NCBI GenBank assembly: GCA_043816165.1
Contig: JBDRIE010000025.1
Location: 2,680 to 66,679, forward strand
Direction: 5' to 3'
DNA: 64,000 bases
DNA from: Nitrospirota bacterium
GTDB taxonomy: Bacteria > Patescibacteriota > Gracilibacteria > UBA1369 > LOWO2-01-FULL-3
Of this stretch, positions 21,021 to 61,868 are shown piece after piece. How positions within the stretch are numbered: position 1 is the first letter of the stretch; each line of letters begins with the position of its first letter. Position numbers and translations under genes: made by a program. A model generated the notes under the pieces. That model ran no database searches and had not been told where the DNA came from. It was given only the letters and a program-made list of their open reading frames with translations.

Positions 21021-21083
21021 ATTCGCTTCGCTCATGCTACGCTCGCCTTAGCTCCCGGCGCGTTCGCTTCGCTGCCGCGTGTT
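21021..21083. repeat. GC-rich intergenic element, copy A
   Basis: Fills the rpsF-ssb spacer. Positions 21034-21083 match 38665-38714 at 43/50 ungapped (hand count). Confidence 0.75.
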
Positions 21084-36981: not shown

Positions 36982-36988
36982 TTAGTGG

Positions 36989-37819: not shown

Positions 37820-38580
37820 TTGTGCCTCAAAAAGTCAGCGCCTGATTCGTCTTTGGCTTTTGGTTCTTCTTTCTTTTCTATCGCTTTTCCATAGTCTTGT
37901 CCATAGACCGTATCTGCGGCCAGGAAGTCTTTGTCATAGATTTCGACTATCCATCCATAAACCATAGTTACTACGCTCTGAGTGAAGGCTATTGAGCCCC
38001 AAACAACCGGTAAGGCGGCGAACAGTAGAATAGTTGGGCTTGTAACCAGTTTTGCCATCAGGAATATCACCAAAGCACTTATTAGGATCGAAAATGTTAC
38101 TCCGTAGAGACCGACGAGGGCGTATTTGCGATCGGAGACTATTTCCAAAATCAACATGCTGGTTTGAGCTGATACTATAACGTGCAACGCTACCGCCCAG
38201 ACCACTATTCCGATGTCTATTGAAGAAGTTACAAAGTAGACGGGAACCATTAATATAAAGATGATTATGTGTACGATGAATGTTTGGTAAATCGCGGTTG
38301 ACCTGCGAGAGTATTTCTCTTGTTCAGTGTATGAGAGTAAAAATGTGCTAAGCAGATTTCCCAAGGTTGTTGCCAGGAAGATCATTACCATTAAGAAGAA
38401 AATGAAGATCGGGCTGACGTATTGTTCCGGACTCGGATTTAATATCGGAGTGAGGATTGATGAGGACAAAACGAATACGAGTAACAGCAATAACGTGCCG
38501 ATAACTCCTCCTGTCATTCCTGCAAGTATTTTTAAAAGAAAACGTGGAAATGATATTTTTGGTGGGCCTAGTTCTGCCAT
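37816..38580 (-). CDS. polytopic membrane protein, unknown function
   Basis: At least 6 hydrophobic helices. Start set at MAELGPP (38580) because the longer track ORF (to 38646) reads through a GC-rich hairpin element. Confidence 0.6.
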   Translation of the reverse strand: MAELGPPKISFPRFLLKILAGMTGGVIGTLLLLLVFVLSSSILTPILNPSPEQYVSPIFIFFLMVMIFLATTLGNLLSTFLLSYTEQEKYSRRSTAIYQTFIVHIIIFILMVPVYFVTSSIDIGIVVWAVALHVIVSAQTSMLILEIVSDRKYALVGLYGVTFSILISALVIFLMAKLVTSPTILLFAALPVVWGSIAFTQSVVTMVYGWIVEIYDKDFLAADTVYGQDYGKAIEKKEEPKAKDESGADFLRHN

Positions 38581-38617
38581 AAGAATAAGGGTTAATAGGG
38601 ATAATGTACTCGCTCCG

Positions 38618-38644
38618 GCCGCTCCCCTGACGGGGGCCAGCGGC
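38618..38644. repeat. GC-rich hairpin GCCGCT-CCCC-TGAC-GGGG-(GCC)-AGCGGC
   Basis: Inverted repeat in the spacer between lspA and the downstream membrane-protein gene, next to element copy B. Confidence 0.5.
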
Positions 38645-38657
38645 ATGACCCTCTTCG

Positions 38658-38714
38658 GGCCTTCGTGCTATGCTCGCCTTAGCTCGCAGCGCGTCCGCTT
38701 TGCTCCCGCGTGTT
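38658..38714. repeat. GC-rich element, copy B (supplies the lspA 3' end and stop codon)
   Basis: 38665-38714 matches 21034-21083 at 43/50. The lspA stop (38679-38681) lies in the CCTTAGC core. Confidence 0.75.
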
Positions 38715-39137
38715 CTTGAGTCTACCATAAAAGATTATTAGCAACAATATTCCGACAGTTATATAAATGTCTGCCAGGTTGAATGTTGGCCAATACGGTA
38801 CAGCTATGAAATCGATCACGTATCCATGGTAAAGTCTGTCACCCAGATTACTGATTCCTCCCGCTAAAACTCCGGCTGTTAGCACTTGAGAGAGACGATG
38901 ACTCAGATCGAGTTCTTTTTTGATGAAATAAAATAAAACTATCAGAAGTGCGATATTTGCTATGATCAGAAGTTCTTGAGGAATTGGGATGCCAAAAGCG
39001 ATTCCAGTGTTTTTTGAGATCGATAAATATTTCGTTGCGAGGAATTTGGTCGCTTGGTCTGAAAGAACTAATAGAAGGGTGAGAATTGATATATTTTTCA
39101 TAGTTATTATTTGAGCACAAATATTGATAAAATACAA
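38679..39137 (-). CDS. lspA: lipoprotein signal peptidase II
   Basis: NTGIAFGI and FNLADIYITVG motifs. The start is probably MKNISILT at 39101. The last 11 aa (NTREQSGRAAS) are encoded by repeat copy B. Confidence 0.88.
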   Translation of the reverse strand: MYFINICAQIITMKNISILTLLLVLSDQATKFLATKYLSISKNTGIAFGIPIPQELLIIANIALLIVLFYFIKKELDLSHRLSQVLTAGVLAGGISNLGDRLYHGYVIDFIAVPYWPTFNLADIYITVGILLLIIFYGRLKNTREQSGRAAS

Positions 39138-39160
39138 TTAAACTAGTAGTATCTTCCCAC

Positions 39161-40369
39161 ATGAGAAAGATATTTAAGTTTGATACAGTTTTGGCCCTCG
39201 CGGTCCTTTTCTTGCTGATTTTCGGGCTGATTATGATTACCAGTATCGGGGTGCCGAAGTCCATAAGTTTGAGCGCGCCTGGTGTCGATTATCCGAATTG
39301 CAGTGACCCGGCGGTTGATTGTTATCTGCTATTCAAAAAGCATTTATTTAGGTTGTTTGTGGGAATTGTGGCGTTCTTTGTGGCTTTGAAATTGTCGATG
39401 AAGTTTTGGAAGAGAATTTCATTTATTTTTTATGTGTTTTTGATTGCTCTTCTGTTTCTCGTACTGATTTCCGGGGAAGCTTTTGGGACAATTGCTACAA
39501 ACTGGCTTGTAATCTTTGAAACTTCTGTTCAGCCCTCGGAGTTTGCGAAGCTTGGTATAATTTTGTATTTGGCATATTGGCTGAGCAAGAAGCGGGACAG
39601 TGTGGAAAGTTTTCAGAATGGGTTTATTCCGTTTTGTGTGATTGCCGGTTTGATGATTTTGCCAATTGTTTTGCAGAATGATTATGGGTCTACGATGGTT
39701 GTTGGGATAATTGCGATTACTATTTTCTTTGTGGCGGGGGCGAAGGTAAAGCACTTGGCTTTTGGAGTTCTTTTGGCGATGCTGGCCACAATTGTGGTTG
39801 TGTCGGCGGTTCCGCATGTCCGGGAAAGGTTTCAGGGATTTATGAGAGTGGAAGAAGAATGTCTTGAGGATTATTGCTGGCAGTCTCAGCAAGCAAATAT
39901 TGCTGTGGCAACCGGCGGATTTTGGGGAAAGGGTTTGACTCAGGGCGTTCAGAAATCGTACTGGTTGCCGCAGGCTTCGGACGATTTTATTTTTGCAGCT
40001 TCTGCAGAGGAATTAGGATTTTTGAGAATAATTTTTATCGTTTTGGCTTACTTTTTGATAGCGATTCGGGGTTACTCTATTGCAAATAAGGCCTCGAGCA
40101 ATTACGAAATGTTTGTCGCAGTTGGAATAACGACCTGGATTGTTGTTCAGGCTTTCATTAATATTGCAGTGAATACCGCTTTGATGCCGGTGACGGGAGT
40201 GACGTTGCCGTTTGTGAGTTATGGTGGTTCGTCATTGGTGGCATCACTTATTGGAATTGGAATTTTATTAAATATTTCTCAACATACAACTTATCATGCG
40301 AATAGTACTAACAGGTGGAGGAACAGGAGGACACGTCATTCCCAATCTGGCCGTTATAGAAGAGGTTAG
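39161..40369 (+). CDS. ftsW: FtsW/RodA (SEDS) peptidoglycan polymerase
   Basis: 402 aa, about 10 TM, with PEAHTDFIF-like SDDFIFAA and LPFVSYGGSSL. Sits upstream of murG. Its Arg-rich tail overlaps murG by 74 nt. Confidence 0.9.
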   Translation: MRKIFKFDTVLALAVLFLLIFGLIMITSIGVPKSISLSAPGVDYPNCSDPAVDCYLLFKKHLFRLFVGIVAFFVALKLSMKFWKRISFIFYVFLIALLFLVLISGEAFGTIATNWLVIFETSVQPSEFAKLGIILYLAYWLSKKRDSVESFQNGFIPFCVIAGLMILPIVLQNDYGSTMVVGIIAITIFFVAGAKVKHLAFGVLLAMLATIVVVSAVPHVRERFQGFMRVEEECLEDYCWQSQQANIAVATGGFWGKGLTQGVQKSYWLPQASDDFIFAASAEELGFLRIIFIVLAYFLIAIRGYSIANKASSNYEMFVAVGITTWIVVQAFINIAVNTALMPVTGVTLPFVSYGGSSLVASLIGIGILLNISQHTTYHANSTNRWRNRRTRHSQSGRYRRG

Positions 40370-41366
40370 GAATGGGAATGAACTTCTATATATCGGTTCT
40401 AAGGATGGAATGGAAAAGAAGATGGTGGAAAATGCCCCGCCTGTGGCGGGATCTTCGATGGGTGTCCGATATGAGGGCGTGAGCTGTGGGAAGTTGCGCA
40501 GGTATTTTTCTGTTGAGAATTTTGTGGATGCTTTTCGAGTGCCTGTTGGATTTTTTCAGGCGAAGAGTTTGTTGAAGAAGTTTGAGCCGGATGTTGTTTT
40601 TAGTAAGGGAGGTTATGTGAGCGTGCCTGTTGTGATGGCGGCTCGTTGGTTGAAGATTCCTGTGATCGTGCATGAATCCGATATTTCTCCGGGACTTGCA
40701 AACAAGATTTGTTTCAAATTTGCAAAGAAGATTTGTGTAAGTTTTGAGGAAACTTTGGCTTATTTACCTAAAAAGTTTTTGAAGAAAGCTGTTTATACCG
40801 GCTCCCCTGTTCGTGGAGAGATTTTGAAGGGAGACAGTGAGGCAGGTTATCGGTTTACCGGATTTGATAAGCATCGACCTGTGATTCTGGTTGTTGGAGG
40901 AAGTCAGGGTGCGGCGCAGATAAATGAGTTGGTTCGTGCTTCATTGGATGAATTGACGAAAAAATTTCAAATAGTACATATTGTGGGAAAAGGGAATTTG
41001 GATATTGGGGTAAATAAACGTGGCTATGTTCAGTATGAATTTTTGGGGCGTGAGCTTGCGGATGTTTATTCAATCAGCGAGATGGTTGTGACTCGGGGTG
41101 GGGCGAATGTGCTGGCTGAATTGGCATTATTAAAGAAAAAAGTTCTGATAATTCCTTTAAGCACTGAAGCCAGTCGTGGAGATCAGGAAGAAAACGCTCA
41201 TCTTTTTGTTAGAAAATTTGGTTGGTCTATGATTAGCGGTGATATTTCGCGAGAAGATTTCATTAGCAATATCGATCTGACATTCAACAATGAACTTTCG
41301 TATGACAATAAATATAAGAACGGGCTGAAGTCGATAGTGGACATTATTCTTAATTACAAAAAATGA
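40296..41366 (+). CDS. murG: UDP-GlcNAc--lipid I N-acetylglucosamine transferase
   Basis: 356 aa. MRIVLTGGGTGGHVIPNLAV..., GGSQGA, and a C-terminal E-x7-E region. Confidence 0.93.
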   Translation: MRIVLTGGGTGGHVIPNLAVIEEVRNGNELLYIGSKDGMEKKMVENAPPVAGSSMGVRYEGVSCGKLRRYFSVENFVDAFRVPVGFFQAKSLLKKFEPDVVFSKGGYVSVPVVMAARWLKIPVIVHESDISPGLANKICFKFAKKICVSFEETLAYLPKKFLKKAVYTGSPVRGEILKGDSEAGYRFTGFDKHRPVILVVGGSQGAAQINELVRASLDELTKKFQIVHIVGKGNLDIGVNKRGYVQYEFLGRELADVYSISEMVVTRGGANVLAELALLKKKVLIIPLSTEASRGDQEENAHLFVRKFGWSMISGDISREDFISNIDLTFNNELSYDNKYKNGLKSIVDIILNYKK

Positions 41367-42508
41367 AAATAGGAGTAAATGCGAGACTGCTGTGTGAACC
41401 ATTTACCGGAATCGGACAATATACTTTGAATATGTTCCGGGAGTTGGCGAAAATCGATCCTAGTAATGAATATATTTTGGTTGTTCCAAAAAAAGTGGAT
41501 GCTTCATTTCCAAGTAACGTTCGGGTGGAAGTCGTTAAACAAAGGCTACTCGGGACTGCGGGGATGAAAAAAACCTGGTGGGAGCAAATAGCATTGCCGG
41601 AATTTTTTGAAAAGGAGGGAGTGGATATTGCTTTCTACACTTATCCGAGTATTCCGTGGACGAAGGATTGGTACGCTAAGGGAATCAAGACTGTTGTTGC
41701 GATTCATGACTGCATTCCGTGGATGAGGAAGAGTTATCGGCGTGGATTGATGTCAAAGATGTATCATTATCGAAATAAAAAAGCGGTGGCGAGGGCAAGT
41801 TTGGTTTTTACTGTGTCTGAAGTTTCCAAAAAAGACATCGTGAAAGTGTGCGGCGTGGAGCCGGAGCGGGTGCATGTCGTTTACAATGATGCGAGTCCTT
41901 TTTATAAATTGTTGATGCCTCGGGTGGAAATTGCTGAAGTTTTGAGGCGGTTTAGCCTGAAGGATGATCAGTTTTTCCTATATGTTGGCGGTTACGACGA
42001 GAGGAAGAATGTTGGATATTTGAAGAATGAGCATGATGCGTATGTGAAGGAGGGTGGTGAATTGCCTTTGGTGTTGATTGGCGGAAAGTTGCATAAGGGG
42101 AAGCTTTATCGGAGCTATGATGGTGGAGATAATGTAGTGAAGACCGGATTTTTGGATGAAAAGTCTTTGGCCGCTCTATATAGGAGTTGTTCGGCTTTTG
42201 TTAATGTTTCGGATCAGGAAGGTTTTAATATTCCTATTCTGGAAGCGGCAAACAGTAGCGCTCCTTTGATACTTTCAGATATTCCTGTGCATCGGGAAGT
42301 TGCTCACCCCGCCATAGGCGGGGGGTCTTCGACCGGTAATGCGGCTTTGTTTGTGAATATTGGTAAGAAGGGAGCTTTGAAAGATGCGTTTAAAAAAATG
42401 TCTCTGGAGGCCAATCAAGAGAGATTTTCTGCTGACTCTGCGGCGTTGGCTCGGAAATATTCATGGGCGAGCTCTGCACAAAAAGTGAAAGATATGCTAT
42501 TTTCTTAA
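41363..42508 (+). CDS. family 4 (GT-B) glycosyltransferase
   Basis: 381 aa. EGFNIPILEAANSSAPLILSDIPVHREV is the GT4 E-x7-E region. ATGA overlap with murG. Confidence 0.85.
   Translation: MKIGVNARLLCEPFTGIGQYTLNMFRELAKIDPSNEYILVVPKKVDASFPSNVRVEVVKQRLLGTAGMKKTWWEQIALPEFFEKEGVDIAFYTYPSIPWTKDWYAKGIKTVVAIHDCIPWMRKSYRRGLMSKMYHYRNKKAVARASLVFTVSEVSKKDIVKVCGVEPERVHVVYNDASPFYKLLMPRVEIAEVLRRFSLKDDQFFLYVGGYDERKNVGYLKNEHDAYVKEGGELPLVLIGGKLHKGKLYRSYDGGDNVVKTGFLDEKSLAALYRSCSAFVNVSDQEGFNIPILEAANSSAPLILSDIPVHREVAHPAIGGGSSTGNAALFVNIGKKGALKDAFKKMSLEANQERFSADSAALARKYSWASSAQKVKDMLFS
42307..42323. repeat. GC-rich palindrome CCCCGCC-ATA-GGCGGGG inside the GT4 CDS
   Basis: Perfect 7-bp stem, in frame, encoding PAIGGG. 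Near-identical to the terminator hairpin at 35001-35015. Confidence 0.6.
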
Positions 42509-42513
42509 TCGAT

Positions 42514-43047
42514 ATGGAACTAATAAATATTCTCATTATAGGTAGTGCGATCGTTCTGGTGCTTGTGCTCTGGGTGATTGTTGGGGTGAGGCATCTTCTT
42601 GGGCTTGTGCAGCGGATTCGGGAAGAATGGGAGGTTGTGGATGAATCTTTGCGGAAGAGGCATGATATATTGCCGAATTTGATTGAAACTGTGAGGGGAT
42701 TTGCTACTGATCAGGAGAGTTTGTTGCAAGATATGATAGATAAACGGGTACGGGCCGCGAAATCTTACGGTGCAAGTGGGAAAAAAATTGAGTATGAACA
42801 TGATCTGAGCAAAGTGATTGATAAGGTTATTGGTTTGGGAAGGAATTTTCAGGAATTGTCTAAGGATACAAATTTCTTGGAATTGAGGAAGGGAATTGAT
42901 GATTTGGAGATACAGATTGAAGAGAAATCGAAGAATTATAATGTGATGGTTAGATACTACAATAGGCATCGTTCGGGGATTTCGTTGCGTCCTCTTGCGG
43001 CTATTTGGGGGCTTAAGGCTGAGAACATCTTCGAGGTAGAAATCTGA
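42514..43047 (+). CDS. lemA: LemA family protein
   Basis: N-terminal TM then RIREEWEVVDESLRKRHDILPNLIETVRGFA...YNVMVRYYN. Start set at MELINI. The track ORF starts at 42463 inside the GT4 gene. Confidence 0.85.
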   Translation: MELINILIIGSAIVLVLVLWVIVGVRHLLGLVQRIREEWEVVDESLRKRHDILPNLIETVRGFATDQESLLQDMIDKRVRAAKSYGASGKKIEYEHDLSKVIDKVIGLGRNFQELSKDTNFLELRKGIDDLEIQIEEKSKNYNVMVRYYNRHRSGISLRPLAAIWGLKAENIFEVEI

Positions 43048-43092
43048 TTTTATTTCTGTAAAGGAAATTTTCCAATTTTTGAAAAGTTTCTG

Positions 43093-43121
43093 TTGACGGT
43101 GAGTGTTTACTCACCTATATT
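43093..43121 (+). promoter_or_regulatory. sigma-70-type promoter of lexA
   Basis: TTGACG (43093-43098), 17 nt, TATATT (43116-43121), about 30 nt upstream of the lexA ATG. Confidence 0.55.
43098..43115. promoter_or_regulatory. candidate LexA operator GGTGAGT-GTTT-ACTCACC
   Basis: Perfect 7-4-7 palindrome filling the -35/-10 spacer of lexA. A further GGTGAGC half-site lies at 43124-43130. Confidence 0.45.
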
Positions 43122-43151
43122 GTTGGTGAGCATATCCTTACCCTAAAAATT

Positions 43152-43772
43152 ATGAACGAATATTTAACAGACAAACAGGAGGCAGTATTGAAGTTCATTG
43201 AGGAATATCAATTGGCTTATGGAAAATCTCCTACTCTTAAGGAGATGCGTGAGAAATTCAAGGTCAGTTCTGACAATAGCATCTTGAAGCATTTAAAGGC
43301 GCTGCAGGAGAAGGGATACCTCGAGAAGGATGATACTCCGAGAGGGATTAAGTTGCTGGATAGCGTAAAGCAGAAATTGACCGGGGGTGGAGTGAGCGTG
43401 CCAATTCTTGGATCTATTCCTGCTGGTGGGCCTGTTATGACTGATGAATATATTAATGGATGGATGAGTGTTGGTGAGGATTTGGCGAAGAACAATAAAG
43501 ACTTTTTTATGTTGGAAGTGACCGGTCGAAGTATGATTGATGCTGGAATTTATGAAGGTGATTTGGTTCTTGTTAATATGAAGAAGGAGGCTAGGGATGG
43601 AGACGTTGTTGTTGCTTTGATTGATAATGAAAATACTTTGAAGAGGCTGGTTAAACAAAGTGGTGGAAAAATTTATTTAAAAGCAGAAAATAGAGAATAT
43701 GAAGATATACATCCAATTGAAGAATTGGTCGTACAGGGAACGGTGACGGCTTTGATAAGGCAATACTCCTAA
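43152..43772 (+). CDS. lexA: LexA repressor
   Basis: 206 aa. Winged-helix N-domain (LTDKQEAVLKFIEEY...SPTLKEM), S24 peptidase core GRSMIDAGI...GDLVLV, and a K in the ...LKRL region. Confidence 0.93.
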   Translation: MNEYLTDKQEAVLKFIEEYQLAYGKSPTLKEMREKFKVSSDNSILKHLKALQEKGYLEKDDTPRGIKLLDSVKQKLTGGGVSVPILGSIPAGGPVMTDEYINGWMSVGEDLAKNNKDFFMLEVTGRSMIDAGIYEGDLVLVNMKKEARDGDVVVALIDNENTLKRLVKQSGGKIYLKAENREYEDIHPIEELVVQGTVTALIRQYS

Positions 43773-44125
43773 AGGGGCGGACATTGGAGTTTAAAAAAAT
43801 TTAATCATTAAAAAACAGCTTGAGCTGGCGCTTTTAGGTCAGCGTTATTTACCCAACTAATTAATTAACCAAATATATTATGTTTATCACACTAACTGTC
43901 GATACAAACATCAAAAAAAACTCAGGTATCAAACTCCGAAAAAATAAAATGAATCCTGCTCACGGATGGAGAAAAGCAATCAATGTAAGGAAGAGAAGTT
44001 TGTGGCAAAGGGTCAGATCTTGGAGGAGATCTTTAAGGGGTGGAAAATACAAATTGGACGGGCAGGCTGTTATGTTTTAATTGTGATTGCCGGCATGTGT
44101 CGGATTTTTTATAGGAATGAGGGGA

Positions 44126-44153
44126 AAAAGTGGGCACGTGCCCACTTTTTTCT
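44126..44153 (+). terminator. perfect palindromic intrinsic terminator
   Basis: AAAAGTGGGCAC/GTGCCCACTTTT followed by a T-run. Ends a 350-bp stretch with no convincing CDS. Confidence 0.6.
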
Positions 44154-44219
44154 TGGGGCGTTGGCTTGAATATGCGATCCTTGTTTTTTGCGTACCTTTC
44201 AATTACCATTAGCTACCGT

Positions 44220-44543
44220 ATGGAAACTAAATATGTGAAAATCGCTGTGTTTGTTCCGACTACTCACGCGGATGAGGTGAGGAAAGTTTTGAGTGAGAGT
44301 GGGGCCGGGCATGTTGGGAACTATGATTTTTGTAGCTTTAGTACGAAAGGGACTGGGCGATTTCGAGGGCTGGAAGGGACGAAGCCTTTTGTGGGAAAAG
44401 CTGGCAAGGTTGAGAAAGTTGAAGAGGAAAAAATTGAGACGATTTGTCCTTATGGAAAACTGCAGACCGTCATTGATGAGCTGAAGAGAGTCCATCCGTA
44501 TGAAGAGCCTGCTATAGATATTTATCCGCTGCTAAACAACTAG
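44220..44543 (+). CDS. YqfO/NIF3-insert-like PII-fold protein (COG3323 type)
   Basis: 107 aa from METKYVK. KIAVFVPTTHADEVRKVL..AGHVGNYDFCSFSTKGTGRFRGLEG..PFVG...HPYEEPAIDIYPL matches the stand-alone NIF3-insert family. Confidence 0.78.
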   Translation: METKYVKIAVFVPTTHADEVRKVLSESGAGHVGNYDFCSFSTKGTGRFRGLEGTKPFVGKAGKVEKVEEEKIETICPYGKLQTVIDELKRVHPYEEPAIDIYPLLNN

Positions 44544-44603
44544 AAATATTTGCACTTCCGGGAGATTTCTATAGAATAATATTCCAAGTTTAAGGGCTTT
44601 TCT

Positions 44604-47225
44604 ATGACAAAACTTACGCCGATGATGGCGCAATATAAGGCTATAAAAGAGAAATACAAGGATTGTATCTTGATGTATAGGATGGGTGATTTTTATGAAA
44701 TGTTTTTTGAAGATGCGGTTGAGGCGGCTGGGATTTTGCAGATTACTTTGACGGCGCGGAACAAGGGTGGAGATGGTAAGGCGCCGATGTGTGGTGTGCC
44801 GTATCATGCGGTGGATCAGTATTTGCCGAAGCTGACTCGAGCGGGAAAAAAAGTGGCGGTGTGCGATCAGATGACTGAGCCGACCGGGAAAGGGATTGTA
44901 GAGAGAGAGGTTGTGAGGGTTGTGACTCCGGGTACGACTTTCGATGAGGGTTTGTTGGATCGGAAGGCAAATAATTATGTGGCGTGCGTGGTTGAGGCTC
45001 CTGCGGGGTCTGGGGCCGGTTCGGGGTCTGGCGCCGGTTCGGGGTCTGGCGCCGGTGCGCGGTTTGGGCTTGCTTATGCGGATGTGACGACCGGGGATTT
45101 TCGTGTGAGTGAATTTGAAAAGTTTAGTGAATTGGTCCGGGAAATGCAGAGAGTGGATGTGGCCGAGTGTATTTGTGAGGAGGAACTGACTGCTCGTGTG
45201 AAACAAGGTTATGTTTTTCCATATTCTTATTCGAAGGACGCGGAGTCTGAGTTGAAGGATGGATTTGGCATCAAATCTTTGAGTGTTTTTGGGCTGGAGG
45301 ATCGTTCACAAGCGACTCTTGCTGCCGGAATGCTTTATGAATATTTGAAGGAAACTCAGAAGACTGATTTGAAACATATTCAGAGGATTTCTTATTTTGG
45401 TATGTCTGATTTTATGCCACTTGATGAAGCTTGTATTAGGAACCTGGAGCTTTTTCGGACTAGTCGTGGGAATAAAGAAGGAAGTCTGGTTTGGGCTATG
45501 GACAATACTGTGACTGCTATGGGTGGGCGGTTATTGAGGAATTGGGTTTTGCATCCACTGTTGAAGAAAGCCGAGATTGATATTCGTTTGAATGAAGTTG
45601 ATAAATTTGTTGGAGATTCGAGCTTGATGAGGTCTGTTCGTGAGGAATTGAGTAAAATTTATGATATTGAAAGACTTTTGAGTCGTTTGAGTTTGGGGAC
45701 CGGCAACGCGAGAGATCTGGTTGCGATGAAGGCGTCCTTGAAAGTTATTCCTAGCTTGAATGAGCTGACCACCTCCACGGCGGGGCAGGCCGGGGCCGCC
45801 GCCTCAGCGGGGTCTGCGACTGGCATTTCTGAATTTCCTGAACTGGTAGCTCTGGTTGAAATTGGTATCAATGATGAATGTCCTATTTCGGTTCGCGATG
45901 GTGGGATGATTCGTGGAGGATATGACAAAGAACTGGATGACTTGAGATCGATAAGTACTGAAGGAAAATCATTTATCAAAGATTTGCAGGAAAGAGAGAG
46001 CAAGAGGACCGGCATTAGCACACTGAAGGTGAAATTCAATAGAGTTTTTGGATATTATATCGAGATTAGCAAAGCAAATGCTGGGAACGTGCCGGATGAT
46101 TATGTAAGGAAGCAAACTTTGGTGAATGCGGAGCGATATATTACGCCTGAGCTGAAGGAATATGAGGAGAAGGTTTTGACTGCTGAGGACCGCATCAAAG
46201 AGCTTGAATATGAACTTTTCTATAAGATTCGGATGGAAGTTGTGAAGGAGTTGGTGAAGTTGCAGAAGGCGGCGAAAGTGGTGGCAGAGATGGATGTGTA
46301 TAGTTGTTTTGCTTTTAATGCGGAGAAGGGGGCGTATTGTAGGCCGGAAGTTTTGGAGGATGCCACCGCCGAGGCGGGGTCTACGAGCGGCATTGAGCTT
46401 GTGGGTAGCAGGCATCCTGTTATCGAAAAAATTGGATCTGATTTTGTTCCGAATGACTGCGAGATGAATGCGGATCAGTCGTTTTTGTTAATTACCGGAC
46501 CTAATATGGGTGGTAAGTCTACTTATCTGAGGCAGGTTGCTTTGTGTGTTTTGATGGCTCAGATCGGAAGTTTTGTCCCTGCTTCGTCTGCTAGGATCGG
46601 GGTTGTGGATCGGATTTTTACAAGAGTTGGGGCATCTGATAATCTTGTGGCCGGAGATAGTACTTTTATGGTGGAGATGCAGGAGGCTTCTTATATTTTG
46701 AATCATGCTACAGAGCGGAGTTTGATAATTTTGGATGAAGTGGGACGTGGAACTTCGACTTATGATGGTGTGAGTATTGCTTGGGCGATTATGGAATTTA
46801 TTCATGATCGGCTTAAGGCAAAAACTCTATTTGCGACTCACTATCATGAGTTGATCGAACTTGCTGACAAGCTGGATCATGCGAAGAATATGAGCGTAGC
46901 CGTGCGGGAAAACGAGAAAGAGGGCGTTGTGTTTTTGTATAAAATTGTTGAAGGGGGCGTGGATAAAAGTTATGGAATCGAGGTCGCGAAGCTTGCCGGT
47001 TTGCCGGTGGATGTTGTTGGGAGGGCGAGGGGAGTTTTGAGTGAATTGGAATCGAAAAAAATTACAAAAAAACGTGTTGATCCGAATCAAGTGGAATTGT
47101 TTGAAGAAAATCGTGCTCATCGTGAACTTTTAAAAGATTTGAGTGAAGTGGATGTTAACAATTTGACTCCGATTGAAGCTTTACGGAAATTGAATGAGAT
47201 GAAAAAGAAAACAAAGGAAGACTAG
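44604..47225 (+). CDS. mutS: DNA mismatch repair protein MutS
   Basis: 873 aa. TPMMAQY...GDFYEMF mismatch-binding domain, GPNMGGKSTYLRQ Walker A, ILDEVGRGTSTYDG. Carries three GC-rich in-frame inserts. Confidence 0.97.
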   Translation: MTKLTPMMAQYKAIKEKYKDCILMYRMGDFYEMFFEDAVEAAGILQITLTARNKGGDGKAPMCGVPYHAVDQYLPKLTRAGKKVAVCDQMTEPTGKGIVEREVVRVVTPGTTFDEGLLDRKANNYVACVVEAPAGSGAGSGSGAGSGSGAGARFGLAYADVTTGDFRVSEFEKFSELVREMQRVDVAECICEEELTARVKQGYVFPYSYSKDAESELKDGFGIKSLSVFGLEDRSQATLAAGMLYEYLKETQKTDLKHIQRISYFGMSDFMPLDEACIRNLELFRTSRGNKEGSLVWAMDNTVTAMGGRLLRNWVLHPLLKKAEIDIRLNEVDKFVGDSSLMRSVREELSKIYDIERLLSRLSLGTGNARDLVAMKASLKVIPSLNELTTSTAGQAGAAASAGSATGISEFPELVALVEIGINDECPISVRDGGMIRGGYDKELDDLRSISTEGKSFIKDLQERESKRTGISTLKVKFNRVFGYYIEISKANAGNVPDDYVRKQTLVNAERYITPELKEYEEKVLTAEDRIKELEYELFYKIRMEVVKELVKLQKAAKVVAEMDVYSCFAFNAEKGAYCRPEVLEDATAEAGSTSGIELVGSRHPVIEKIGSDFVPNDCEMNADQSFLLITGPNMGGKSTYLRQVALCVLMAQIGSFVPASSARIGVVDRIFTRVGASDNLVAGDSTFMVEMQEASYILNHATERSLIILDEVGRGTSTYDGVSIAWAIMEFIHDRLKAKTLFATHYHELIELADKLDHAKNMSVAVRENEKEGVVFLYKIVEGGVDKSYGIEVAKLAGLPVDVVGRARGVLSELESKKITKKRVDPNQVELFEENRAHRELLKDLSEVDVNNLTPIEALRKLNEMKKKTKED
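45005..45058. repeat. 3 x 18-bp tandem repeat inside mutS
   Basis: GGGGTCTGGGGCCGGTTC / GGGGTCTGGCGCCGGTTC / GGGGTCTGGCGCCGGTGC, encoding (GSGAGS)-type linker. Confidence 0.9.
45768..45827. repeat. GC-rich in-frame cassette in mutS (insert 2)
   Basis: Encodes TSTAGQAGAAASAGSATGI. 45795-45827 matches 46362-46394 at 26/33 ungapped and in the same codon phase (hand count). Confidence 0.7.
46362..46394. repeat. GC-rich in-frame cassette in mutS (insert 3)
   Basis: GCCACCGCCGAGGCGGGGTCTACGAGCGGCATT encodes ATAEAGSTSGI. Shares the GCGGGGTCT core with inserts 1 and 2 and with 42317-42340. Confidence 0.7.
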
Positions 47226-47280
47226 CGAATAAATGGCTTCTATTGTATGATTGCGGTTGGTATTTCCTAATACTTGAAAT

Positions 47281-48423
47281 ATGAAAAAATTATTTAGCTT
47301 GTTACTAGGTTTTGCCTTGGTTTTGACCTTGGCGGGATGCAGTTTTGATTTCAGTTTTGGGGGAGGTGATGATGAAGAAGAAGTTATTGCGCCGGAAGAG
47401 GAAATAGTGGAGGAAGAGGAAGTTGTTGAGGAGGAGGAAGAAGTTGTTGAGGAGGAGGAAGAAGTTGTGGAAGAAGAGGAAGAAGTTGTGGAAGAAGAGG
47501 AAGAGGTTGTGGAAGAAGAGGAAGAGCCCGGCTACACTGGGGCAAATTACATTACAATTACCAGCCCTGATCCTGATAGTGATTACCATGAACAACCTAT
47601 AGTTTTTGAAGGAATTGTTTCTCCAAATACAAAGAAAATTGTAGTTACGGCTACTATTCAAGCAATGGATATGAATCCTGATGCTCTGGATGTTGTCGAT
47701 GTTTACACCTTGCAAGATTTCAAATATGGAGATGCCAATTTTGTTTATAGATCAAGTATGGAGTGGGGCAATTTGTTTTATGGAACTAATGACTACGAAT
47801 TCAAAGCTTATTACGATGATGGGAAGACCAGTAGTGCTTATTTGACTGTTTACTTCTCACCAGCAACTGCTGAAATAGGTAAACCGGTAGTTTATCTTTA
47901 TCCAGAGAAAACAATGAAAGTTTTTGTGGATGTTGAGCCTGAGGGCGGAATTTCCGTTTCTGAGCCTGAATTAGCAGATGGATGGAATGTTGTGGCTACT
48001 CCTGATAGTAAAATTTATAATTTTGCTGATAGAGGAGTTTATCCTTACTTGTTCTGGGAAGGTTATGCTTATGATTTCGTGACTCCGGAAGAGGGATTTG
48101 TAGTAGAGAGTGATGGTGTTGAGAAGTTTTTTGATGAAAAATTGGCAGTTCTTGGTTTGAATGAGGTGGAAGTTGCTGACTTCAAGGAGTTTTGGGTGCC
48201 TCGCTTGAGTGAAGATCCTTACTATTTTATTACTTTCATTTCACAAGAAGATTTTGATAAATATGCACCTTTGACTGTTGATCCTGAGCCGGATTCTGTG
48301 ATCCGAGTATTCTTCGATTACAAAGGACTGGATGGAAAAGCGGAAGTCAAAGAGCAGAAACTTGTAACTCCTGAAAGAGAAGGTTTTACTGTTGTGGAAT
48401 GGGGTGGAAGACTTTATAGATAA
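47281..48423 (+). CDS. lipoprotein with acidic (EEEEVV)n repeat and unknown C-terminal domain
   Basis: 380 aa. Lipobox LTLAGC, about 45 aa of E/V repeat, then a roughly 290-aa aromatic-rich domain not recognised. Confidence 0.75.
   Translation: MKKLFSLLLGFALVLTLAGCSFDFSFGGGDDEEEVIAPEEEIVEEEEVVEEEEEVVEEEEEVVEEEEEVVEEEEEVVEEEEEPGYTGANYITITSPDPDSDYHEQPIVFEGIVSPNTKKIVVTATIQAMDMNPDALDVVDVYTLQDFKYGDANFVYRSSMEWGNLFYGTNDYEFKAYYDDGKTSSAYLTVYFSPATAEIGKPVVYLYPEKTMKVFVDVEPEGGISVSEPELADGWNVVATPDSKIYNFADRGVYPYLFWEGYAYDFVTPEEGFVVESDGVEKFFDEKLAVLGLNEVEVADFKEFWVPRLSEDPYYFITFISQEDFDKYAPLTVDPEPDSVIRVFFDYKGLDGKAEVKEQKLVTPEREGFTVVEWGGRLYR
47395..47526. repeat. coding 24-nt tandem repeat (E/V-rich)
   Basis: GAGGAGGAGGAAGAAGTTGTT- and GAAGAAGAGGAAGAAGTTGTG-type units, about 5 copies. 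Confidence 0.8.
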
Positions 48424-48428
48424 AAATT

Positions 48429-50033
48429 ATGAAAAAATTATTTTCGCTATTAATTTTGTTGCTGTTTTCGGCTGTGTTTACCGGTTGTGGTAAGGAATAT
48501 ATATATATTGATTCGCTTTATCCCGAGGATGAAGCGATGTGGAAGCATATTTTTGACAAAGGTGAATCCATTGAATTTGAAACTGCCCCAATGGGGATTA
48601 TTTTGCCGCATCACTCTATTACGCAATTTACAGTGAATAGTTTTTATGCCGGTTTGGCTAAGGTGAAAGATCCTTCTGTTGTTGTGGTTTTGGGGCCGAA
48701 TCATTTTGAATCCGGTCTTGAGACCGGCAAGTCTGACAATGTGCAGACGTGTAACGCGTGTATTTATTCAACTACTGATGGAGATTTGATGCTGGATGAG
48801 GATTTTATTGACGATATGGTTGATGATGGAGTAGCTGTTTATAACGACACTACTTTCGCTCAAGAGCATGCGGTTTTTGCCCATTCTCCTTTTATTAAAC
48901 ACTATTTTCCGGAAGCTACGATCGTTCCAATTCTGTTTAAGTGGGATACCTCGATTGATGAGCTGAAGGAGGTAAGTGATTTTTTGGATGAAAATTTACC
49001 TGCAGATGCTTTGGTGCTCGCCAGTGTGGATTTTTCACACTATGTTCCTGATGGAATGGCACTTTTCCACGATGATGCTTCATATGCTTCAATAACTAAT
49101 TTCGACTATTCTAATATTTTTGATCTGGAGCTCGACTCACCTTCTTCAATCTATACATTGCTCAGCCTTATGGATGCACGTGGATATATGAATTCTGAAT
49201 TGAAGAAGCATACGAATTTAACTGATTTCATTGATGAACATAAGGAGGAAACCACTAGCCATTTGTATTTTGCCTTTTATAAAGGTGAAGTTGATCCGTA
49301 TCAGGGAGTGAGTATTTTGGTGGTTGGTAGTTTGCCGGATGATAATACTTTGGAATTTATGACGAGCTGGAAGTGGGATGAAAATTATGATGAAGCTTCG
49401 GATCAGACTATAAATAAGCAGCTTCGAGATATTCGTGGGACTGAGGATCGGTTTTTGGTGGGAGCTGATTATTACTTATTTGATCATGTTGAAAATGAAT
49501 GTTCTGTTGAAGAACAAAACTATATGAAAATTGCATTCTGTAAGTTTTCTGAGGACGAGGGTGCAGAAAAAGAGTATTTGGATATTATCGATAAAATCAA
49601 AGAAGATGTTGATGAAGTTGTGCTTCTTTTTGATTATCAAGGCGGTGGTGAAGTTGATGAAGATAGAAAATTCTTCACACGTGCTCTGGCGAAAAAGGGT
49701 GTAGATATTTTTATTGGGCGTGGGCTTAAGGAGATCGTTCCTTTTGAAACTTATAAGGGAAATTTGCTTTTCCATAATCTTGGAAATTTCATTGTGGACA
49801 ACAAACTGGTTACTGACTTGAATGCTTTGTCTTCAGGAATCGCGCTTGGACTTCATATTACTCCATACAATTACATTATTTATACTTTCCCTGTTTCGAT
49901 TACAAATGGCTATCCAACGCTTGAGGATTACTCCAAACGGACTACGCTATTTAATATTTATAAAGAAGATGCTATATTGGACCGCCATGATAGTACCAAT
50001 CAGGATAAGGGGTTTATAAATGTTGAAAGATAG
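48429..50033 (+). CDS. lipoprotein: MEMO1/AmmeMemoRadiSam-B-like domain fused to a degenerate CapA-like C-terminal half
   Basis: 534 aa. Lipobox FTGC. MGIILPHH..., VLGPNH, FAQEHAVFAHSPFIKHYFP, IVPILF and ASVDFSHY are MEMO-like. The C-terminal YKGNLLFHNLGNFIVD resembles the CapA tail (tentative). Confidence 0.7.
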   Translation: MKKLFSLLILLLFSAVFTGCGKEYIYIDSLYPEDEAMWKHIFDKGESIEFETAPMGIILPHHSITQFTVNSFYAGLAKVKDPSVVVVLGPNHFESGLETGKSDNVQTCNACIYSTTDGDLMLDEDFIDDMVDDGVAVYNDTTFAQEHAVFAHSPFIKHYFPEATIVPILFKWDTSIDELKEVSDFLDENLPADALVLASVDFSHYVPDGMALFHDDASYASITNFDYSNIFDLELDSPSSIYTLLSLMDARGYMNSELKKHTNLTDFIDEHKEETTSHLYFAFYKGEVDPYQGVSILVVGSLPDDNTLEFMTSWKWDENYDEASDQTINKQLRDIRGTEDRFLVGADYYLFDHVENECSVEEQNYMKIAFCKFSEDEGAEKEYLDIIDKIKEDVDEVVLLFDYQGGGEVDEDRKFFTRALAKKGVDIFIGRGLKEIVPFETYKGNLLFHNLGNFIVDNKLVTDLNALSSGIALGLHITPYNYIIYTFPVSITNGYPTLEDYSKRTTLFNIYKEDAILDRHDSTNQDKGFINVER

Positions 50034-51783
50034 TATGTCTGTAATAAAGATTCTTCCGGAAAATTTGGTCAATCAGATTGCTGCAGGTGAGGTGGTTGAA
50101 AGGCCTTCTAGTGTGGTCAAGGAGCTTGTTGAAAACAGTATTGATGCCGGGGCCGGGCGTGTTTTGGTCGATGTGAGGGATGGAGGGAAGACTTTTATTA
50201 AAATTACCGATAATGGGTGTGGGATGTCGCGAGACGATCTTGAAATGGCATTGCAAAGGCATGCAACTAGCAAGATTTCTAGCGAGGCTGATTTGTGGAA
50301 AATAAAAACTATGGGGTTTCGTGGTGAGGCTCTGGCGAGTATTGCTTCGGTTTCGAAGATGGTTATCAAGAGTAAAACTGCCGGTGAAGTCGGGGGTGCA
50401 ATGATCGAGTGCAATGGTGGGGATATGGTTTCGGCGAATGATGTCGGTATGAGTGACGGGACTGTGATCGAGGTTTATGATTTGTTTTTTAATACTCCGG
50501 CTCGGCAGAAATATCTAAAAAAAGAGAGTACCGAGCTTGGGCAGATAACTTCTACGATGAATAATATTGCTTTGGCTAACCCTTCTGTGGCTTTCAAGTT
50601 GATTCATAATGGGAAGGCGGTATTTGATTTGGCGCCTGTTACGGATTTGATTTCGCGGGTGAGGGATGTTTTTGGGGTGGCGACTGCGGAGGCGATGATC
50701 CCTGTGTTTTATGGAGGAAGCAGTTTTCAGGTTGAGGGTTTTGTGGGGAAGCCGGCGTTGAGTCGAAGTACAACTAAACATCAATACTTTTTTGTTAATG
50801 GTCGTTATGTTCAGCACTTTTTATTGGCGCATTCAATCAAATCTGCGTTTCATTCGATGTTGATGGAAAACAAGAAACCGGTTTTTGTTATAAATATTAC
50901 GATCGATCCATCTTTGATTGATGTGAATGTGCATCCGCGGAAGTTGGAAGTGCGTTTTGAAGATCAGCAAAGGATGATTCGGACTATGTATTCGTGTGTA
51001 AAAGCGGCATTGGAGAAAGAAAGCCTGACTCCTCTCGGAATTACTGAGTCGAAAAGGTATATGTCAGACAGTTTCCCGAAGGAAAACAATTATGCGAAAG
51101 CTGGAAATGTTCAAGATGCAATTTCATTTTCCAAAGATTTTTTGGCAGAAAGAGATTCCCGCCAAATTCAGCAAACTTCTTTGCCAACGGGTATTTCTGA
51201 GGAGGAGGAAGAAGGTATGCAAGCAATTTCCCAAGTCTCTGAGTCGTATATTGTCGCTCAGGATCAGGGCGGGCTTGTTTTGATTGATCAGCATGCCGCT
51301 CATGAAAGAGTTCGATATGAACAATTGATGGATCAATATGAAAATGAACAAAAAGCTGTTCAGCCTTTGCTTGTACCTTTGCAGATTGAGTTTTCCGGAG
51401 ATGAGGTTTCGGTGATCGAAGATAATAAGGAAATTTTTGATGGATTGGGGTTTGATGTTGAGCATTTTGGAGGAAAAACTTTTGTGGTGAATGGTGTTCC
51501 AGCGTTTTTGTCGGGGGAAGATGCCGAGGGAGTGATAAAGGGAGTTTTGGATGATATTTTGAATGAATCTAAACCTTCGCGTGTTCAGGGATTTGAGGAA
51601 GTTATCAATTATATGGCTTGCAGGAGTGCTATAAAGTTTGGGCAAAAGTTGAGTTTGGGGGAAATGCAGGTATTGATTGATGATATGTCGAAGTTGGAGA
51701 GGCCATATACTTGTCCTCATGGTCGTCCAACAATGATTTCACTTACTTTAAGTGAGCTTGAGAAGATGTTTGGAAGAAAGTAA
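50020..51783 (+). CDS. mutL: DNA mismatch repair protein MutL
   Basis: 587 aa. LPENLVNQIAAGEVVERPSSVVKELVENSIDAG GHKL ATPase and C-terminal dimerisation domain with ...ACRSAIKFG.... Confidence 0.95.
   Translation: MLKDSMSVIKILPENLVNQIAAGEVVERPSSVVKELVENSIDAGAGRVLVDVRDGGKTFIKITDNGCGMSRDDLEMALQRHATSKISSEADLWKIKTMGFRGEALASIASVSKMVIKSKTAGEVGGAMIECNGGDMVSANDVGMSDGTVIEVYDLFFNTPARQKYLKKESTELGQITSTMNNIALANPSVAFKLIHNGKAVFDLAPVTDLISRVRDVFGVATAEAMIPVFYGGSSFQVEGFVGKPALSRSTTKHQYFFVNGRYVQHFLLAHSIKSAFHSMLMENKKPVFVINITIDPSLIDVNVHPRKLEVRFEDQQRMIRTMYSCVKAALEKESLTPLGITESKRYMSDSFPKENNYAKAGNVQDAISFSKDFLAERDSRQIQQTSLPTGISEEEEEGMQAISQVSESYIVAQDQGGLVLIDQHAAHERVRYEQLMDQYENEQKAVQPLLVPLQIEFSGDEVSVIEDNKEIFDGLGFDVEHFGGKTFVVNGVPAFLSGEDAEGVIKGVLDDILNESKPSRVQGFEEVINYMACRSAIKFGQKLSLGEMQVLIDDMSKLERPYTCPHGRPTMISLTLSELEKMFGRK

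Positions 51784-59686: not shown

Positions 59687-61868
<2,182 letters not shown>

Follow-up and report, generated by a model that had tools for sequence, protein, structure and literature searches.

Rickettsia palindromic elements (RPE) and REPs that lie in frame within genes have been published before, and the family of short inserts that we describe here is a variant of that known class. REPs are 20- to 40-nt GC-rich hairpins that run out on one side into a short unpaired tail and are defined by a GTAG or CGTC (TGTC/CCTC) tag beside the stem; they are high-copy, mainly extragenic, and often arranged as dimers, and those that lie within ORFs are in frame and frequent in DNA-repair genes (Di Nocera et al. 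2013, PMC3733652). CGTC REPs, to which RPE-4 and RPE-6 belong, have A/T first pairs in their stems and no dedicated transposase (PMC3733652). RPE are described as selfish palindromes that sit in frame in housekeeping genes, where they are translated and tolerated at the protein surface (PMC3733652, PMC10969869). Yeast mitochondrial GC clusters and related organellar hairpin elements are GC-rich palindromes in AT-richer genomes that turn over rapidly between relatives and whose modules merge and shuffle; the clusters are mostly intergenic and carry what may be a duplicated AG target (Wu and Hao 2015, PMC4478555).

The window, a stretch of 64,000 nucleotides from the genome that we call G000, was compared with three other genomes of the same genus (G001, G002, and G003). 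Two GC-rich segments in its mutS gene, one in a glycosyltransferase (GT4) gene, and one in murG belong to a single element family (Table 1). The unit opens with 5' CC, continues through a stem based on CCGCC/GGCGG with a loop of 3 to 5 nt, and closes with a 7-nt unpaired 3' tail, TCT-N-CGA; both ends are fixed. The 24-nt consensus is CC[A/C/G]CCGCC-loop-GCGGG[G/A]TCTNCGA, the tail being TCT[T/G/A]CGA, which on the opposite strand gives TCGNAGAC adjoining the stem. A 30-nt variant with a longer stem is found in the GT4 gene, an OFOR beta subunit, and an amidohydrolase. Units are 67 to 82% GC in a genome of 39.8% GC, and copies in nonhomologous genes match at 20 to 24 of 24 nt. We consider it probable, at roughly 0.8, that the family is a non-autonomous insertion element, a small GC-rich hairpin akin to REPs but with each copy intragenic.

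Table 1. Element copies, related sites, and host gene in the window (positions counted from its first nucleotide)
Feature	Position	Strand	Sequence and context
GC-rich patch in a 1262-aa orphan gene	12694..12725	.	Intact orthologous copy in G002 is antisense and read PPVEDPAKGGAE
murG 24-nt element	40435..40458	+	CCCCGCCTGTGGCGGGATCTTCGA; in murG 40296-41366; read (A)PPVAGSS
GT4 30-nt variant	42303..42332	+	CTCACCCCGCCATAGGCGGGGGGTCTTCGA; in glycosyltransferase gene 41363-42508; read HPAIGGGSST
mutS host gene	44604..47225	+	873 aa; Pfam MutS_I to MutS_V; E. coli MutS match in PDB, E = 1e-187
mutS site 1, three tandem 18-nt units	45000..45059	+	GCGGGGTCTGGGGCCGGT then TCGGGGTCTGGCGCCGGT x2, encoding AGSGAGSGSGAGSGSGAG; between domains I/II
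mutS site 2A, 21-nt B-type unit	45769..45789	+	CCACCTCCACGGCGGGGCAGG; directly upstream of older site-2 copy
mutS site 2, 24-nt element	45796..45819	+	CCGCCGCCTCAGCGGGGTCTGCGA; read (A)AASAGSA(T)
mutS site 3, 24-nt element	46363..46386	+	CCACCGCCGAGGCGGGGTCTACGA; read (A)TAEAGST(S); directly before domain V GSRHPV motif
Empty site in G000	61348..61351	+	G002 has a private 24-nt copy here, CCACCGCCACAGCGGGGTCTTCGA
MutS insert-spanning peptide, predicted from sequence			...EDATAEAGSTSGIELVGSR...

Like RPE, the family occurs in frame in unrelated protein-coding genes and is missing from their orthologues. It differs from them in its length of 24 to 30 nt and in being found in one Patescibacteria genus, a separation drawn against descriptions of RPE. 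RPE-1 is about 100 to 150 bp long. The family shares the GC-rich hairpin, the one-sided tail, and the in-frame position with REPs, and with CGTC REPs the lack of a transposase of its own. Unlike REPs, it has no GTAG/CGTC tag (on the other strand the TCTNCGA tail places ..AGAC beside the stem), its stems consist of G/C pairs throughout, and its ~16 copies are all intragenic, with no HH/TT dimers and no RAYT, the Y1 transposase that accompanies GTAG REPs. The mitochondrial GC clusters resemble it in composition, turnover, and modularity, but the element lies in ORFs only and makes no target duplication. A MITE is derived from an IS and has terminal inverted repeats and a target-site duplication, whereas our element forms one hairpin, is tailed asymmetrically, and leaves no duplication.

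In G000 the full pattern, with up to 2 substitutions allowed, matched 15 copies versus 0 in the reversed genome. We count 15 to 17 copies in G000, at least 11 in G002, 1 in G001, and 0 in G003; the corresponding strict-pattern counts are 8, 11, 1, and 0, with reversed-pattern controls all at 0. Among ~455 other genomes of the phylum there were only 2 stray strict-pattern matches. As far as these pattern searches tell, the family does not extend beyond one genus of ultra-small Patescibacteria from groundwater. The G000 copies (~16) are spread over many different contigs, all within ORFs of at least 200 aa, and are single units except for two adjacent pairs. Hosts include MutS, MurG, MurD, GuaA, PPDK, FBPase, OFOR subunits, and SSB. 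Modules merge and shuffle, with A1, A2, A3, and B units as sub-families, and the same hairpin is nested in a 57-nt element carried by CarB and MnmA; B-type units other than that at mutS site 2A occur in guaA, in murD, and on contigs C42 and C48. The tail of the PPDK copy is tandemly duplicated locally.

Folded as DNA, the commonest 24-nt form reaches -3.9 kcal/mol, a weak hairpin not above shuffled sequences; the murG copy reaches -7.1 kcal/mol (z = -3.6) and the GT4 copy -9.6 kcal/mol (z = -4.2), and stems are often imperfect. Among hairpins with a 6-bp stem, CCCGCC/GGCGGG is the most frequent in the G000 genome (25 observed versus 0.07 expected). The core GCGGGGTCT exceeds chance expectation: it occurs 11 times on both strands versus ~2 expected (Markov orders 1 to 4), with 7 of the 11 inside family copies. 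Rfam searches returned nothing but a tRNA for the window and nothing but RNase P for the GC-rich repeat loci. RNase P has the family stem in three of its helices, and terminators use it as well.

The sequence-only reading had singled out two mutS segments (45795-45827 and 46362-46394) as 26/33 identical and both in codon phase 0, and the coordinates and sequences are correct. So is the core that it placed in the GT4 gene (GGCGGGGGGTCTTCGACCGGT at 42317-42337), which lies in frame. It did not include the murG copy or the 21-nt unit at mutS site 2A, and it missed that what is conserved is a hairpin followed by a 7-nt tail, with both ends fixed. An alignment of 25 MutS orthologues bears out its expectation that all three segments are lineage-specific. 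A search for related loci brought up distant MutS alone (at most 50% identity), with a Patescibacteria MAG as the best match. Sites 2 and 3 are filled in G000 and G002 and empty in G003, G001, and other genera (21 of them for site 2), while site 2A is private to G000, being absent from G003, from G001, and from G002, which has the 24-nt copy alone. The site 3 insert was also seen in metagenome runs X1 and X3, including in a diverged strain.

At mutS site 1, G000 has 54 nt more than G003, partly present in G002 and G001. The tandem repeat, which starts at 45003, had been tied to the cassette: a core of 10 nt is indeed shared, and GCGGGGTCTG occurs only three times in the genome, the other two being true element copies. 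The link itself is no better than probable, with 14/17 identity to the element plus flank. Judged from these matches, site 1 is probably a decayed and amplified 3' half of an element.

The MutS inserts occupy three stretches predicted to be disordered: the connector between domains I and II and the loops that precede the clamp and domain V. Their proposed location in surface loops agrees with gaps relative to E. coli MutS (18 aa at site 1 and 8 aa at site 3) and with modelled coil of pLDDT <50 (residues 135-150, 393-405, and 587-593 for sites 1, 2, and 3).

Exact empty counterparts of 24 or 30 nt were found at ten sites in genomes of the same genus, and at 8 of the ten, outgroups indicate insertion. 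The murG gene, which matches the Pfam GT28 N and C domains, has a G003 orthologue that lacks exactly 8 aa (24 nt), and the GT4 orthologue in G003 lacks exactly 10 aa (30 nt). At GT4 the insertion lies cleanly between REVA and GDAALFV, and we rejected the possibility that it replaces the catalytic EX7E region. The mutS site 2 and 3 pairs differ by 24 nt each. Six further filled/empty sites, each with 2 or 3 outgroup genomes, comprise four copies private to G000 and two private to G002. Three more G002-private copies are empty in G000. Thus some copies are private to G000, some to G002, and some common to both. For one G002 locus (L050), the aligned flanks map to C25:64027 and C25:64030 with an exact 24-nt gap in G000 (the empty site in Table 1). 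At another (L051, against C25:15380), G000 has a related GC island that is degraded and 9 nt shorter; this patch, at 12694..12725, is probably a decayed copy.

At the 13 sites with an empty counterpart, no target-site duplication was found. At more than 10 independent sites, set in sequence that is otherwise unrelated, the unit starts and stops in the same way (CC...CGA, 24 nt), and the junctions show no microhomology. On the evidence of these alignments, the insertion of new copies is shown to postdate the divergence of the species in this genus and to leave no target-site duplication. The sequence-only reading had argued for the spread of one cassette rather than low-complexity drift, and this stands: exact 24- or 30-nt inserts with the same ends lie in unrelated genes and are absent from orthologous sites in the same genus. 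Over 14.5 kb of synteny between G000 and G003, family units make up only 4 of the 10 indels of at least 6 nt (5 counting site 1). No within-population indel variants were detected in four metagenome runs, a result that we count against an element, together with the lack of a mobilizing enzyme among the genes searched for, the weak hairpin of the commonest form, and this small share of the indels. The stray copy in G057 has the only flanking 7-nt direct repeat, and no empty counterpart was found for it.

In mutS DNA, G000, G002, and G003 are nearly equidistant (84 to 85% identity), and the three shared copies therefore need either a clade of G000 and G002 or their precise loss from G003. Since G000 and G002 split, the shared copies in mutS and FBPase have been kept, and shared copies diverge about as fast as their flanks (1 to 4 of 24 nt versus ~15%). 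An assembly artefact was ruled out, as copies are orthologous in two species and the same inserts are carried by independent metagenome runs; groundwater runs X1 to X5 contain this organism.

Being divisible by three in length and free of stops in each of the six frames, the unit never disrupts its host gene. In 24 independent events, 15 copies are read as A-G-S, 7 antisense as D-P-A, and 2 as R-D-L-R, with 0 in the remaining three open frames; the two mildest readings, A-G-S-S and antisense E-D-P-A, thus account for 22 of the 24. The earlier statement that the cassettes encode only A/G/S/T residues holds for one frame, and three are actually used. We infer that a copy survives where a disordered loop gains small or acidic residues from it (A-G-S-S-T-G or antisense V-E-D-P-A) and that the element is therefore translated and merely tolerated. 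Metatranscriptome X9 gave no coverage of the inserts.

Insertion is mostly at G^NNGG, after G and before NNGG, giving junctions G/CC...CGA/NNGG (slashes marking the unit ends). Copies cluster, with 6 pairs within 5 kb versus 0.75 expected (P = 0.00075). In G000, 14 of 14 copies lie on the G-rich strand, including three that are antisense to the host gene; the 7 G002-private copies divide into 5 on the G-rich strand, 1 on the opposite strand, and 1 that is ambiguous. This bias is confounded with gene orientation and frame selection, and the independent test consists of 5 antisense copies, 2 of them clear. The G-rich strand is presumably the leading strand.

IS200/IS605 elements keep one orientation with respect to the replication strands. 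The strand bias of our element, measured against the G-rich strand with a skew that is confounded with gene orientation, may hint at a likeness to them. Points shared with IS200/IS605 and REP-RAYT single-strand transposition are a hairpin, here the presumed recognition feature, the absence of target-site duplication, and a short preferred sequence adjoining the insertion. The element differs from IS200/IS605 in being a single hairpin rather than having separate left and right ends, in a target (G^NNGG) that lies mostly 3' of the insertion point, and in belonging to a genus without the Y1/HUH transposase (TnpA), or the TnpB that often accompanies it, in four genomes. There the Y1_Tnp profile (PF01797) gave no match, while controls matched in 6 known genomes, and the TnpB zinc-ribbon domain was absent. 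The genomes are ~1 Mb and without Y1 transposase, and candidate enzymes are therefore few. Free-standing GIY-YIG nuclease genes of ~85 aa are present, and their number tracks the number of elements across the four genomes; small GIY-YIG proteins of G000 are encoded at C41:18090-18302, C30:3221-3433, and C10:718-945. HNH and LAGLIDADG proteins are further candidates.

By analogy with IS200/IS605 and RAYT enzymes, we infer that a trans-acting enzyme recognizes the folded hairpin on single-stranded DNA and cuts at the two fixed ends. New copies commonly settle less than a few kilobases from one already present, mostly after G and before NNGG, with the hairpin-to-tail strand placed on the G-rich strand. 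That the 24-nt unit is the complete substrate of a strand-specific Patescibacteria insertion pathway without Y1, with GIY-YIG nucleases or a replication-fork process as candidates, strikes us as doubtful. If true, few DNA units that have defined ends and are shown to have moved recently would be as small, and the case would provide a tractable handle on the spread of transposase-less REP-like and GC-cluster elements. A copying error coupled to replication would need no enzyme: a stable hairpin in a nascent or template strand would provoke template switching or flap mis-ligation, and hairpin plus tail would be copied from nearby. The lack of a detected transposase in the genus, the clustering of copies within 0.5 to 5 kb, their fixed orientation relative to the G-rich strand, and local tandem duplications (the PPDK tail and the mutS site 1 unit) all fit such an error. 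We nonetheless think it unlikely, given that the ends are constant without junction microhomology, that copies sit on many separate contigs, and that the hairpin of the main variant is weak.

The cassette might instead be kept for a function of its own and spread because it is useful, for instance as an mRNA hairpin pacing translation where domains meet, as a tag on the protein, or as a site of recognition or recombination. The domain-junction positions in MutS, the retention of the mutS and FBPase copies, and the stem in RNase P helices and terminators would agree with this. We find it quite improbable, however, in view of sister species that lack each copy, shared copies that change about like their flanks, imperfect stems, and the use of three different reading frames. 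Least credible, and very improbable, is a separate origin of each segment as a low-complexity Gly/Ala/Ser/Thr linker, with codon bias and slippage making them alike. In its favor, mutS site 1 is a slippage-type tandem array, and in other genera MutS carries unrelated GC-rich insertions at the same loops (G024 at site 3, G010 at site 1), so that these loops are indel-prone. Convergence does not explain identity of 20 to 24 of 24 nt between nonhomologous genes that takes in the palindrome and fixed ends and extends to antisense and third-frame use; it also faces reversed-pattern controls of 0, the absence of the family from the rest of the phylum, and the exact 24-nt filled/empty sites, which contradict it.

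The family in this genus bears on how transposase-less hairpin repeats move, whether CGTC REPs, Rickettsia elements, or mitochondrial GC clusters. The case is unusually clean, with exact ends, a 24-nt unit, and more than 10 filled/empty pairs between sister species in both directions, and it offers a measurable target preference, local clustering, and strand bias. In the candidate phyla radiation, reduced genomes accommodate repeated insertion into enzymes that are essential, which is relevant to their annotation, to orthologue alignment, and to structure prediction.

A metagenome-wide pattern scan gave 81 matches among the 80 loci listed, 72 on contigs of ~60 to 70% GC and only 7 on contigs of <50% GC; from these numbers, the majority look like chance. 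Two 24-nt units stand in tandem on one 45%-GC metagenome contig, which shares no gene with G000.

A genome-wide listing of GC islands and hairpins in G000, the genome containing the window (1.07 Mb, 49 contigs, 39.8% GC), traced the GC-rich cassettes in mutS and a GT4 glycosyltransferase gene to a short element whose shared core forms the 3' arm of a CCGCC/GGCGG hairpin, with a constant tail behind it. The window spans C25:2680-66679 of G000. CCCGCC..GGCGGG was the most frequent 6-bp-stem hairpin in this genome (25 observed versus 0.07 expected) and the sole GC-rich hairpin among the top 25. The unit, with its ends set by alignment of same-genus genomes, is 24 nt long and reads CC[A/C/G]CCGCC-loop-GCGGG[G/A]TCT[T/G/A]CGA. 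We distinguished sub-types A1 (CCRCCGCC-N4-GCGGGGTCTNCGA), A2 (CCCCGCCTGTKGCGGGATCTTCGA), A3 (30 nt, CTCRCCCCGCC-WTAK-GGCGGGGGGTCTTCGA), and B (21 nt, with the 3' end ...GCGGGGCAGG). With up to two substitutions allowed, a search recovered 15 A-type copies from G000; the reversed genome yielded none. Predicted hairpins of A2 (-7.1 kcal/mol; z = -3.6) and A3 (-9.6 kcal/mol; z = -4.2) are strong. A1, the commonest form, has a weak hairpin (-3.9 kcal/mol, no more stable than shuffled sequences) owing to a C-to-A substitution by which a Pro codon also becomes Thr.

The sequence-only reading had singled out two mutS segments (45795-45827 and 46362-46394) and an in-frame GGCGGGGGGTCTTCGACCGGT in the GT4 gene (42317-42337). 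The 33-nt segments are indeed 26/33 identical and begin in codon phase 0, and the core GCGGGGTCT is more frequent than chance, with 11 occurrences on both strands versus about 2 expected under Markov orders 1 to 4; seven of the 11 fall within copies of the one element. Its proposal that a single cassette had spread is supported by the fixed ends and by exact 24- or 30-nt empty sites in same-genus genomes. The genome-wide search recovered further copies in many genes, with frame and orientation recorded. Hosts of A- and B-type copies are mostly housekeeping genes: MutS, MurG, GT4, GuaA, PPDK, FBPase, MurD, SSB, a DinG-like protein, an amidohydrolase, a Wzy-like protein, and OFOR alpha and beta. 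In the PPDK copy (C26:8119-8175, in the PEP-utilizers mobile domain), the 12-nt tail is tandemly duplicated (GGGGTCTTCGAC GGGATCTTCGAT).

Coordinates of host genes, element copies, related repeats, and small GIY-YIG genes in G000 (window positions unless a contig is named)
Feature	Location	Strand	Remarks
mutS	44604-47225	+	873 aa, all five MutS domains
GT4 gene	41363-42508
Copy in murG	40435-40458
Copy in GT4	42303-42332
Copy at mutS site 2	45796-45819
Copy at mutS site 3	46363-46386
B-type unit	45769-45789		adjoins site-2 copy on its upstream side
~57-nt copy	C43:37770-37850		carB
~57-nt copy	C34:20935-21020		mnmA
~57-nt copy	C43:12685-12755
~57-nt copy	C9:28160-28240		ssb tail
~57-nt copy	C43:20489-20556		intergenic
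~57-nt copy	C43:49279-49337		intergenic
~57-nt copy	C47:5756-5811		intergenic
~57-nt copy	C33:71030-71083		intergenic
Small GIY-YIG gene	C30:3221-3433 (within C30:3100-3560)		~85 aa; between broken tRNA-Cys copy (GC-rich inserts) and intact tRNA-Cys
Small GIY-YIG gene	C41:18090-18302
Small GIY-YIG gene	C10:718-945

Orthologous positions in related genomes indicate how these copies arose. Among 25 MutS orthologues, the second and third of three insert places (sites 2 and 3) are filled only in G000 and its congener G002 (91% amino acid identity) and empty in the congeners G003 (90%) and G001 (83%) and in every other genus, so that the inserts are lineage specific; the DNA gaps are exactly 24 nt. 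On a syntenic contig of G003, exactly 24 nt (8 aa) of murG and exactly 30 nt (10 aa) of GT4 are absent at the copy sites. Six more sites were aligned over all four genomes of the genus. Four hold copies private to G000 (DinG-like exonuclease-helicase, amidohydrolase, OFOR alpha, and OFOR beta) and two hold copies private to G002; each is empty in two or three of the other genomes, which sets the direction as insertion. Three G002 copies (L050, L054, and L055) have exact or near-exact empty counterparts in G000, one of them in the window at 61348-61351, and the FBPase copy is common to both genomes. No site with an empty counterpart showed a target-site duplication. By these alignments, the copies are insertions, and recent ones.

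As a check against over-reading, we listed all indels of at least 6 nt in 14.5 kb of G000-G003 synteny (window 36646-51785 versus G003 contig C55). All ten were extra sequence in G000 and none in G003; they comprised four exact family units, the site-1 array, and five unrelated indels. Four public groundwater metagenome runs from separate studies yielded contigs covering all three mutS sites with the inserts present; these contigs contained no indel variants there and included a strain with 6 to 9 substitutions around site 3 that kept the insert. The inserts are not an artefact.

The strict pattern occurred 8 times in G000, 11 times in G002, once in G001, and not at all in G003; it had one match among a further 57 genomes from the family or order (G057) and one in 400 genomes sampled over the phylum (G406), and its reversal had none in any genome set scanned. 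These 24- to 30-nt in-frame hairpin insertions are a genus-restricted, recently expanded family. The lone G001 copy shares a TTCT loop with the copy at C21:7058 in G000, which it resembles, so the family may be older than the split within the genus. The G057 copy (L058, C1:115208-115228; CCGCCGCCACGGCGGGGTCTGCGA), the only one outside the genus in the 61-genome scan of relatives, lies in another family of the same order and has AAATCAG on both flanks, the only possible target duplication seen.

The unit is open in all six frames, which are used unevenly. Across 24 independent insertion events from G000, G002, G001, and G057, the frame ..A-G-S-S/A/T.. was used in 15, the antisense frame ..(E)-D-P-A.. 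in seven, and ..R-D-L-R.. in two; the three Arg-, His-, or Trp-rich frames were never used. Antisense copies occupy acidic tails (e.g., the SSB C terminus) or genes on the lagging strand. Selection on the protein best explains the uneven frame use, and on that ground the inserts are presumably translated.

The suggestion that the mutS inserts occupy surface loops agreed with structure mapping. In an AlphaFold model (mean pLDDT 78), sites 1 to 3 are coil with pLDDT below 50 (residues 135-150, 393-405, and 587-593); against Escherichia coli MutS, they align with gaps of 18 aa at site 1 and 8 aa at site 3 and with a variable loop at site 2. By Pfam boundaries, site 1 lies between domains I and II, site 2 within domain III, ahead of domain IV, and site 3 between domains III and V. 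Unrelated GC-rich insertions occur outside the genus at site 3 in G024 (L007; ARPGAEGGPRAEASGG) and site 1 in G010 (L020; SLRSEKGGRGGRGGD), marking these MutS loops as recurrent indel sites. Site 1, the 18-nt tandem repeat at 45003 that had been taken as a cassette relative, carries 54 nt more than G003, that is, three 18-nt units. The kinship is only probable: 14 of 17 positions of a unit agree with the element and its flank, and a left arm is not recognisable. GCGGGGTCTG occurs just three times in G000, here and in two bona fide copies. We lean towards an origin of site 1 in a decayed copy that later underwent slippage.

A G immediately precedes the insertion point at 12 of 13 empty sites and positions +3 and +4 are GG at 9 of 12, giving a target G^NNGG; one antisense copy, in which these bases do not form a Gly codon, also fits. 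Copies are clustered, with six pairs within 5 kb versus 0.75 expected (P = 0.00075). Four insertion events in two species share a 6.2-kb stretch of contig C35, and in the window a 6-kb stretch holds five GC-rich insertions, namely four family units plus the site-1 array. The hairpin-to-tail strand was the G-rich strand in all 14 G000 copies scored, including three antisense to the host gene, and in five of seven G002-private copies (one ambiguous, one opposite); this strand bias is only suggestive because skew is confounded with gene orientation. We favour a process in which a trans-acting activity would recognise the hairpin and insert it strand specifically, working like IS200/IS605 or REP-RAYT elements without belonging to those families, over the main rival, in which a replication-coupled copying error spreads the copies. 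As to a source for such an activity, no Y1/RAYT transposase or TnpB domain was found in the four genus genomes (positive controls worked). Small free-standing GIY-YIG genes number three in G000, one each in G002 and G001, and none in G003, a parallel with element counts that covers four incomplete genomes; none of these genes adjoins an element copy.

Rickettsia palindromic elements are the classic case of in-frame insertion, so the kind of event is already known; the family itself appears to be a new variant, and the literature searched contained no report of such elements in Peregrinibacteria or Patescibacteria. REPs of 20 to 40 bp also occur inside ORFs, many in replication and repair genes, and the CGTC type has no dedicated transposase (PMC3733652, Di Nocera et al. 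2013); unlike REPs, the element lacks a GTAG/CGTC tag, A/T stem base pairs, dimer organisation, and an extragenic habit. Yeast mitochondrial GC clusters show turnover and module merging by an unresolved mechanism (PMC4478555); the element family resembles them in both respects, without their AG duplication.

G000 holds other GC-rich repeats. A second family of ~57 nt (...GAGTCAGCTCC-CCCCGCCAAGGCGGGG-CAGGGTCGGGAC..., about 9 to 12 copies, several in frame in essential genes) has the same hairpin at its centre, with in-frame copies in CarB, MnmA, and SSB; it had no Rfam match. In C9, C15, and C26, a variant without the inner CCCCGCC hairpin occurs, as though one hairpin had been nested into another element. 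Directly downstream of one copy is a free-standing 219-aa ORF (C43:20605-21264) with a LAGLIDADG-like motif, LGFFAADGS. A different repeat of ~55 nt (C43:31985-32043; L140 2686-2744) has 84 to 95% identical copies on many contigs and occurs in all four genus genomes, including G003, which is without the 24-nt element. Two more families, each on several contigs, are represented at window 38605-38712 (C25:41284-41391; ...GGCCGCTCCCCTGACGGGGGCCAGCGGCATGACCC...) and 21049-21083 (C25:23728-23762; ...AGCTCGCAGCGCGTTCGCTTCGCTGCCGCGTG...); an Rfam scan of the window found nothing but one tRNA. The class A RNase P RNA (C33:20508-20946; L040 209-647; 143 bits) is 439 nt long versus 367 nt in the model, with a CCCGCC/GGCGGG stem in three native helices and an insertion of ~83 nt in the P12 region.
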